The notes under the pieces are model-generated. The model saw only the letters and a list, made by a program, of their open reading frames with translations. It did not search any database and was not told where the DNA came from. Source: Candidatus Babeliales bacterium (GTDB lineage: Bacteria; Babelota; Babeliae; Babelales; JACPOV01). From it: 64,000 nucleotides of DNA. This document shows positions 14,010 through 14,456 of the stretch, in pieces; position 1 is the stretch's first letter; every line of letters starts with the position of its first letter. Made by a program: the position numbers and the translations under genes. Location: positions 128,001 through 192,000 of the forward strand of contig JBFWNW010000003.1 in assembly GCA_050250855.1 (NCBI GenBank), read 5' to 3'.

Positions 14010-14456
14010 TTACTTATTATCTGAACTATTTGAAGAAGTTGCAATATGAGGATTTAGTAGCTTAATAGATAATTCAAGGTTATTGGTATCAAAAGTATCC
14101 ACGACATTTGCCACTGTTTTATCATCTGAAAGAGAATCACTTCTACTTTTTACAAATCCACCAAATACAGCAAAGCCGCTAAAGCCTTCATTTTTAGTAG
14201 CAACAAGCCTTTGCTGCCCAGTTGGAATACCTTCTCTGTCATACAGCTTATTTTTGATATCCCCAATAGTTGTATTTTGATCATATTCAAATAAAGCTGT
14301 TGTTTGTGGATGACTAACAAAAATTATCTTAGGCGGCTGAGCCGTTTGTATAACTTGTAGAGCAGCTTGCAAAGTTTTTGGATTTTTTTTAGGTTCCATG
14401 CTATACAATACAGAAGTGGTCACAAAAACAGTTATACAAATTAGTTTTTTATTCAT
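14010..14456 (-). CDS. Secreted ubiquitin-like domain protein
   Basis: TTIGDIKNKLYDREGIPTGQQRLV versus ubiquitin [24 protein letters not shown]; signal peptide. Confidence 0.8.
   Translation of the reverse strand: MNKKLICITVFVTTSVLYSMEPKKNPKTLQAALQVIQTAQPPKIIFVSHPQTTALFEYDQNTTIGDIKNKLYDREGIPTGQQRLVATKNEGFSGFAVFGGFVKSRSDSLSDDKTVANVVDTFDTNNLELSIKLLNPHIATSSNSSDNK

Follow-up and report, generated by a model that had tools for sequence, protein, structure and literature searches.

A ubiquitin-fold protein with a signal-peptide-like N-terminus and an aromatic hairpin insertion belongs to a multi-copy family of the Babeliales

The DNA analysed in this study (the window, 64,000 nt) covers positions 128001-192000 of contig C3 in the genome of a Candidatus Babeliales bacterium (Dependentiae), a 1.22-Mb metagenome-derived assembly of 11 contigs that is 95% complete and has a GC content of ~35%. 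Its minus strand carries at 14010-14456 a gene for a ubiquitin-fold protein with predicted export, referred to here as the target. A sequence-only reading of this DNA had described the protein as a secreted, eukaryote-type ubiquitin mimic; our results go beyond that reading in that the target belongs to a Babeliales-wide family. The open reading frame (ORF) is intact, starts with ATG and encodes 148 aa, and its 148 codons and stop codon in the ORF list fill exactly these bounds. A Shine-Dalgarno-like motif, AAAGGA, was read from the sequence at 14462-14467 on the same strand, 5 nt before the ATG. An internal start at Met20 was rejected because no motif resembling a ribosome-binding site (RBS) precedes it and because the hydrophobic reading frame upstream of it is conserved in relatives. 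A consensus scan of the 198-bp divergent intergenic region gave a promoter-like site (TTGAAT, 16 nt, TATATT, with TG) at 14494-14521 on the minus strand; 10 promoter-like sites were observed in this spacer against 5.6 expected, which is weak evidence. No intrinsic terminator was found for the gene. DNA data sets that contain this sequence numbered four, from two studies of landfill and sediment metagenomes, one of them possibly being its source; no RNA data set was listed.

The predicted architecture of the protein is a Sec-type signal peptide, a short helix, a ubiquitin-family beta-grasp and a disordered polar tail. The signal-peptide-like segment (residues 1-19, 14400-14456, minus strand as for all parts of the gene) consists of MNKK followed by 15 uncharged or hydrophobic residues ending in LYS|ME. 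It was assigned by inspection and hydropathy, with a 10-residue hydropathy maximum of 2.44 at residue 5, and the predicted local distance difference test (pLDDT) score is ~51 for residues 1-20; the earlier description of the protein as secreted agrees with this assignment. Residues 26-38 (14343-14381) are predicted as a helix before the domain in both AlphaFold2 models and correspond to an 'L-x-P-W-V' linker in the family alignment. The beta-grasp domain occupies residues 43-133 (14058-14330), with b1 at 43-48, b2 at 53-58, a1 at 64-75, b3 at 82-89, b4 at 103-105, a2 at 115-122 and b5 at 126-131. A polar tail of low model confidence (residues 134-148, 14013-14057) follows in place of ubiquitin R74-G76.

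The likeness to ubiquitin is found in both sequence and predicted fold. In a MAFFT alignment, 25 of 75 aligned positions (33%) are identical to ubiquitin, the ubiquitin unit of P0016 being the reference for residue mapping. The stretch T63-V85 shares 13 of 23 residues with ubiquitin T22-I44, and I44-V47 (IIFV) pairs with Q2-V5, as the close tracking of residues 22-44 noted earlier would have it; the two further pairings of the sequence-only reading, LSDDKTV with LEDGRTL and LELSIKL with LHLVLRL, were also recovered, L109-V115 lying on L50-L56 and L127-L133 on L67-L73. The ubiquitin-family core residues I3, V5, T22, K27, Q41, L43, L50, D52, L67 and L69 are present or conservatively replaced. 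The placement in the eukaryote-type ubiquitin family held in a PF00240 search (E 4.6e-6, score 26.7 bits, cut-off 25.4); PF14560 was also just over its cut-off, and these two were the only Pfam matches at E <= 1. Against PDB sequences, phmmer with the target reached mono-ubiquitin chains at about E 3e-4, and a profile of 25 family sequences reached them at E ~1e-8, with profile positions 34-81 on ubiquitin 2-49. An exhaustive phmmer search with the target gave 858 matches at E <= 0.001; among the 150 matches listed, all were polyubiquitin-type repeats except the same-genus orthologue, and only residues ~45-87 were covered.

The AlphaFold2 model had a mean pLDDT of 66.5 when built from three sequences and of 82.1 with a 25-row family alignment, in which the domain core reached 95-98, and its elements run in the order b1-b2-a1-b3-[insert]-b4-a2-b5. 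Foldseek with the first, shallower model gave ubiquitin chains as its top matches (E 1.6e-5, TM-score 0.77-0.81), with the match running along the entire ubiquitin chain. All 50 best matches of this model were ubiquitin-superfamily folds, and no ThiS or MoaD chain was among them. The sequence-only reading had staked its case on a beta-grasp that does not group with ThiS/MoaD, and this is what the models indicate. A sulfur carrier of the ThiS/MoaD type was rejected, as the target has no ThiS or MoaD Pfam match at E <= 1 and no diglycine, and the genome has no ThiF. Judged by sequence and model together, the target is a eukaryote-type ubiquitin-family beta-grasp protein.

The closest relative is an orthologue in a genome of the same genus (G001), which is 147 aa long, 60% identical, and has an insert six residues shorter than that of the target. 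Searches of narrow scope found little more. A word-index homologue search with the single protein returned only the target itself among 19 candidates, the same search with the family alignment returned five matches, none of them named, and is insensitive owing to its word limit, and a related-locus search from narrow alignment patterns found only the same-genus contig among genome contigs and no relative among viral and metagenome contigs. At E <= 0.001, 18 of 201 Babeliales genomes had a match to PF00240 itself, 12 of them above the cut-off, and none of 14 control genomes had one; nearly all of the matching Babeliales ORFs open with a signal-like segment, and several have a longer aromatic beta3-beta4 region like that of the target. 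A domain-only family profile was built from six insert-type sequences and run on 261 Babeliales genomes, giving 31 matches in 20 genomes, in ORFs of 110-165 aa, most of which escape PF00240 at genome level. Widening this genome search from the order to the phylum brought in no genome beyond these 261. The insert type is carried by 19 of the 261 genomes; the remaining one, G148, matches only through an insert-less domain. With the target's own genome left aside, the matching genomes fall in four GTDB families (1/9 in f1, 4/41 in f3, 1/5 in f15 and 13/80 in f19), and no genome in the other 17 families matched. Two or three copies per genome, some of them adjacent, occur in G001, G230, G217 and G243. 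A further candidate, 110 aa long and very divergent, lies on contig C1 of the target's genome and was a seed of the family profile; by itself it matches the target at no better than E 0.1 and Pfam not at all, so its membership is probable rather than firm. Beside this candidate lies a gene (L007:515-1432, minus strand) for a 305-aa, Cys-rich signal-peptide ORFan, in which a stretch LP..T.LHIL.YI looks F-box-like by eye and no Pfam match was found at E <= 0.1.

Twenty-seven family ORFs were extracted and 25 of them aligned. Of the aligned members, 18 match PF00240 at E <= 0.01 when scanned singly; NCBIfam has no family for the target, and gave two stray matches at E ~0.009 among the 25. An N-terminal 10-residue hydropathy maximum of at least 2.0 was found in 25 of the 27 ORFs, and both ORFs without a signal-like N-terminus are fragments, one containing an in-frame TGA and the other lacking a start. 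The signal segment ends in most full-length members at a junction of a small residue, Met and a polar residue (A-M-E, G-M-D, S-M-E); a regular expression for it matched 20 of 25 rows, two of them spuriously, and three of the 25 rows have no N-terminus. The same junction was seen in many small ORFs flanking family genes and in an ankyrin protein (L033-L061), and it may be a lineage-typical signal-peptidase site or a sorting mark. From its sequences, the family is Babeliales-restricted, multi-copy and insert-bearing. As side leads, the ESM Atlas hinted at bacterial ubiquitin-domain clusters in Verrucomicrobiota and in Pseudomonadota with IPTL-CTERM, at feature scores <= 0.79.

Such a patchy distribution could also be that of a decaying relic, a captured ubiquitin gene with no present function. 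Within the target's own GTDB family, only the sister species has a member and the other 8 genomes have none, and in the G185 member (L036:1510-1740, minus strand, contig C26) an in-frame TGA falls within the matched domain and a start codon was not found, which makes it either a pseudogene or an assembly error. Decay is nevertheless very improbable for the target, because the ORF is intact and its length is kept between two species at 60% identity; the RBS-like motif, the conserved fold-core residues of 25 members and the confident structure model point the same way.

What the family keeps and what it loses was read from the 25 members mapped onto ubiquitin. T22 and K27 (ubiquitin numbering) are invariant in all 25, Q41 is kept in 21, and D52 is D in 17 and N in 7. 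Also kept are I3, V5, V17 (as I), I23, V26, I30 (as L), E34-G35-I36-P37, Q40, L43, L50, L56, L67 (as F) and L69. This kept set is the fold core with its buried polar network. The surfaces of ubiquitin with L8, H68, V70, the arginines, the acceptor lysines and the tail serve recognition and chain building. At these positions the family is variable: the L8 position is P, L or I (P50 in the target), the H68 position is L or E (E128), the V70 position is mixed (S130), and the positions of R42, R72, R74 and G75-G76 vary. K6, K11, K48 and K63 are lost, K27 is the only family-invariant lysine, and K29 is kept in the target. Beyond the fold core, conservation lies in the family's own insert and in the helix-2 face. 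The insertion of about 18 aa that had been noted at the hairpin proved to be exactly 18 aa, Phe/Gly-rich, T87-S104 (14145-14198), placed between ubiquitin F45 and A46 when aligned to ubiquitin together with nine Babeliales ubiquitin-like domains that have no insert. It lengthens the beta3-beta4 hairpin, and its tip (residues 91-100) has a pLDDT of ~61 in the AlphaFold2 model with the family alignment. Relatives have an insert of ~12 aa, usually with one or two Trp, and the target's 18 aa contain four Phe. Other family-specific features are a Pro or Ala after L43 and a stretch I-K-x-x-M-x-x-Y-N-T-x-x-F at ubiquitin 56-67, which reads V-A-N-V-V-D-T-F-D-T-N-N-L in the target. The target (33%) and its orthologue (32%) are the most ubiquitin-like members, others going down to 11-20% identity.

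These patterns bear directly on the earlier proposal that the protein is a decoy of ubiquitin receptors, deubiquitinases (DUBs) or the proteasome. A classical decoy would use its I44 patch to titrate host ubiquitin-binding domains, DUBs or proteasome receptors. The target does have V85 at the I44 position, R83 at R42, the I36-patch equivalents I77, I131 and L133, and its 33% overall identity; a ubiquitin-specific protease (USP) with predicted secretion is also encoded in the genome. On the other side, L8 is replaced by P50, H68 by E128 and V70 by S130, the insert is a close neighbour of the I44 position, the target lacks the LRLRGG tail by which DUBs and E1 hold ubiquitin, and the patch positions vary freely in the family while the conserved surface is that of the insert and helix 2. 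The decoy reading is weakened because the surface read by those partners is not kept, and we consider it improbable. Because conservation has shifted from the classical patch and the tail, both lost, to the insert and the helix-2 face, we think that the target does not pass as ubiquitin and that it presents a new surface on the ubiquitin scaffold.

The conjugation features of ubiquitin are lost in the target: the diglycine, the acceptor lysines save K27 and K29, and, in the genome, matches to the activating (E1) and conjugating (E2) enzymes. Ubiquitin G75-G76 are N135-P136 here, followed by a 12-aa polar tail, and none of the 27 family ORFs has a diglycine in its last 15 residues. The sequence-only reading had seen no E1 or E2 nearby, and this now extends to the whole genome: PF00899 (ThiF-type E1) has no match in the 95%-complete genome, its control being positive in 14 of 14 genomes, and PF00179 (UQ_con E2) has none either, which is a weak negative because the E2 control was silent in every control genome. 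No OTU or C48 peptidase matched in the genome. The missing diglycine and the non-conjugatable nature proposed for the protein are thus upheld. Covalent attachment by an unconventional route, for example after tail trimming by a nearby peptidase or by a host enzyme, would have a candidate in a signal-peptide C11 (clostripain-like) peptidase gene two genes away (11901-13268), and one Babeliales ubiquitin-like protein (G196 L009) keeps GGGG at positions 75-78. We give this route very little credence, as neither the target nor its orthologue nor any other family ORF has a glycine pair in its tail, the genome has no E1 or E2 match (host enzymes being a separate matter), and no C11 neighbour is kept beside other members.

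The order Babeliales also has signal-peptide ubiquitins that are near-canonical and carry no insert, namely G173 L008, G173 L025 and G196 L009, which are 78%, 73% and 56% identical to ubiquitin. They share with the target the bacterial order and the combination of a signal peptide with a ubiquitin domain, and L008 and L025 have likewise lost the diglycine; they differ from it in lacking the insert, in their long C-terminal extensions and in their place on the other side of a branch in the domain tree. L008 (1372-2382), L025 (1141-2232) and L030 (1090-2055), all on the plus strand of G173 contig C9, are three neighbouring genes for signal-peptide proteins that share a conserved C-terminal region, '...MTS.E.G.L...NMA.FS.LESHRNAARKVI', with no annotation in the scans run. 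L009 (1417-1992, plus strand, G196 contig C12) has four glycines at ubiquitin positions 75-78 and then an extension of ~90 aa, and the final part of its ORF enters masked or unknown bases; in sequence it resembles a ubiquitin-fusion precursor that a DUB could cleave. A maximum-likelihood tree of 35 domains, 25 of them insert-bearing, was built from 74 columns and is unrooted with many long branches. One branch separates the 25 insert-bearing rows from the remaining ones, with support 84/72 on all columns; once the insert columns were taken out, the split was still there at 87/73 and appeared in 88% of the bootstrap trees. This tree would fit an insert family that arose once, though such an origin is unproven, and it gives nothing firm on donors. 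A host origin of the target domain is plausible because other Babeliales carry signal-peptide ubiquitins that are 56-78% identical to ubiquitin.

The ubiquitin homologue BfUbb lacks the terminal diglycine. As reported for Bacteroides fragilis, BfUbb is a bacterial signal-peptide ubiquitin homologue that is exported and stands outside any bacterial conjugation system (PMC3352274, PMC5705921, PMC11467351), features shared by the target, for which export is predicted. In those reports it is 63% identical to ubiquitin, without an insert, and is the product of a strain-variable single gene of a free-living gut bacterium that kills competitors through a periplasmic peptidyl-prolyl isomerase (PPIase), whereas the target is 33% identical, has the insert and belongs to a multi-copy family of an obligate intracellular parasite. 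By inspection, hydropathy and domain match the target shows the BfUbb-type pairing of a signal peptide with a ubiquitin homologue, and with its low identity and its 18-aa insert it is not near-canonical in sequence. The ubiquitin-like domains of Rad23, Dsk2 and parkin dock by an equivalent of the I44 patch. These are N-terminal domains of larger proteins, while the target is a stand-alone domain with predicted export and a remodelled patch. A shuttle of the Rad23/Dsk2 type was rejected, since the Pfam scan found no UBA or other partner domain in the target. Viral ubiquitins (baculovirus v-ubi and giant-virus genes) are ubiquitin genes captured by intracellular parasites of eukaryotes, as is plausible for the target; matches to viral ubiquitins in BFVD reach E 2.5e-6 with at most 28% identity, and the target is no closer to viral than to cellular ubiquitins.

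The genome offers both a possible link to the host ubiquitin system and a possible way out of the cell. It contains one USP/UCH (PF00443, E 1.7e-44), encoded outside the window at L062:1240-2517 (minus strand, contig C4). This protein of 425 aa has its catalytic Cys box directly after a typical signal peptide and, by sequence and analogy, is a putative exported deubiquitinase like those noted in Babela, whose genome paper describes secreted C19 hydrolases, F-box and RING proteins and lists Ulp1-like proteins as well (PMC4378268). USPs were found in 90 of 261 Babeliales genomes, namely in 11 of the 20 that match the family profile and in 79 of the other 241. Two secretins and two ATPases of the type II secretion system (T2SS) type are also encoded. 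In one study, each of seven TM6 genomes compared was reported to have a type II system in which gspD is present twice (PMC4776705), and the two secretins found here fit that pattern. The target is a possible type II secretion substrate because of its signal-like N-terminus and the presence of these secretins and ATPases. For Chromulinavorax, signal peptides were reported in 44% of coding sequences, including 78% of ankyrin proteins, and vesicle release was suggested (PMC6561590). The window itself encodes a TLC ATP/ADP translocase (18643-19995) and ankyrin-repeat proteins, in keeping with published accounts in which Dependentiae live as energy parasites of protists (PMC6561590, PMC4378268, PMC4776705).

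The target gene is convergent with a gene for a signal-peptide Asp/Glu racemase (13210-13974) and divergent from a run that encodes a P-loop kinase-like protein (14655-15152), a MazG-like protein (15156-15551) and, three genes from the target, a Fic protein with a helix-turn-helix tail (15651-16748). Beyond the racemase and C11 peptidase genes lies one for an APH phosphotransferase (11020-11895). The region 9000-25200 is a run of accessory-looking genes, including several GNAT acetyltransferases, and a tyrosine recombinase (XerC/D-like) is encoded at 5308-6273. A bacterial small signal recognition particle (SRP) RNA (51894-51986) and a tRNA (52250-52338), both on the minus strand, are the sole Rfam matches in the window. 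A Fic gene also lies directly beside the G173 member, and two cases are too few to mean anything. Around the family members, 74 of 78 flanking ORFs were scanned, leaving out three target neighbours that had already been scanned and one family-member ORF. Forty-one of the 74 have no Pfam match at E <= 1e-4, many of them being small signal-peptide ORFans, and a conserved operon partner was rejected for want of any among them. No E1-, E2- or JAB-linked operon was found at the target or among the 74 flanking ORFs, JAB having been searched for there and not genome-wide.

Our best reading, on which we are evenly divided, is that the target is a host-directed, non-covalent effector that uses a family-specific surface. 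The protein would be exported by Sec, with cleavage of its signal peptide, and would then cross the outer membrane through the type II secretion system of the genome, or leave in vesicles. In the protist host it would act non-covalently as a binding module, and the interaction surface would be the aromatic hairpin with the helix-2 face and not the L8/I44/V70 patch of ubiquitin. The partner would probably be a host protein that normally reads ubiquitin-like domains.

Several points weigh against a host-directed effector. The PF00240 match of the target spans only profile positions 1-42 of 72 and is barely over the cut-off, the insert tip is modelled with low confidence, and the signal peptide was judged by eye. 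Moreover, a signal peptide does not single out effectors because ~44% of Dependentiae coding sequences have one, as reported for Chromulinavorax (PMC6561590), and a periplasmic or envelope role fits it equally well. None of the 74 flanking ORFs belongs to a ubiquitin-system family and no neighbour is conserved. The co-occurrence of USPs with the family is mild and the relatives are not independent; no functional pair with the USP is argued, because the enrichment is mild and phylogenetically confounded. Among bacterial ubiquitin homologues a target is known for BfUbb only, and it is reported to be the periplasmic PPIase of another bacterium and not a host protein (PMC11467351).

Much of this would suit a function on the bacterial side, in which the ubiquitin fold was re-used in the periplasm, in the envelope or between bacteria and never meets the host ubiquitin machinery. 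A Sec signal delivers first to the periplasm, the neighbours of the family are mostly small signal-peptide ORFans and envelope or transport genes (ABC-2, OmpA, MreC, Rce1-like) with ubiquitin-system genes unlinked to it, the classical ubiquitin-receptor patch is unconserved, and BfUbb is a precedent (PMC5705921, PMC11467351). We consider such a function rather unlikely, though to be taken seriously: Babeliales are described as obligate intracellular parasites with many proteins directed at eukaryotes (PMC4378268, PMC6561590), the family shows the patchiness, multiple copies and rapid evolution often seen in effector families, a type II secretion system is encoded in the genome, and no import context of the SusCD type is known here.

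The host-directed effector can be placed in a wider scenario, which we put forward tentatively and hold to be somewhat doubtful. Babeliales may have captured host ubiquitin repeatedly, adding a Sec signal and losing the diglycine, and in one old lineage a Trp/Phe hairpin may have replaced the I44 patch, giving rise to an expanding set of type-II-secreted 'dead-ubiquitin' effectors that would dock to host readers (the proteasome, p97 or an autophagy receptor) and protect or feed the parasite. If this is true, the series from 78% to 11% identity within one order would be a natural record of the change from a eukaryotic modifier to a bacterial effector.

Bacterial ubiquitin homologues are rare, and BfUbb, which was described in 2018 as the only known one (PMC6194340), is the one studied case. 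An exported, non-conjugatable bacterial ubiquitin homologue is thus already known from BfUbb, and meddling of Dependentiae with host ubiquitin from Babela. In the literature searched, we found no description of ubiquitin-like proteins in Dependentiae, and the Babela paper, its supplements aside, lists no ubiquitin homologue (PMC4378268). No name or publication was found for the insert family, which has no Pfam family of its own and no NCBIfam model. The family therefore appears to be undescribed in that literature, although the supplements of the Babela and Chromulinavorax papers, which the search did not cover, could list such genes; the graded series of ubiquitin derivatives in Babeliales likewise appears undescribed there. 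The earlier interpretation as a whole is partly supported, and the structural and evolutionary case is solid. Ubiquitin derivatives with signal peptides are present in a whole order of uncultivated protist parasites, among them a distinct multi-copy family with a conserved hairpin insert. If these proteins act in the bacterial envelope, ubiquitin would have been turned to bacterial ends a second time, independently. If they reach the host, they would represent a new kind of interference with ubiquitin-like signalling, brought about not by a ligase or a deubiquitinase but by a re-engineered surface on a fold that cannot be conjugated. They would then also be a concrete handle on host manipulation in Dependentiae, about which hardly anything is known beyond ankyrin counts.

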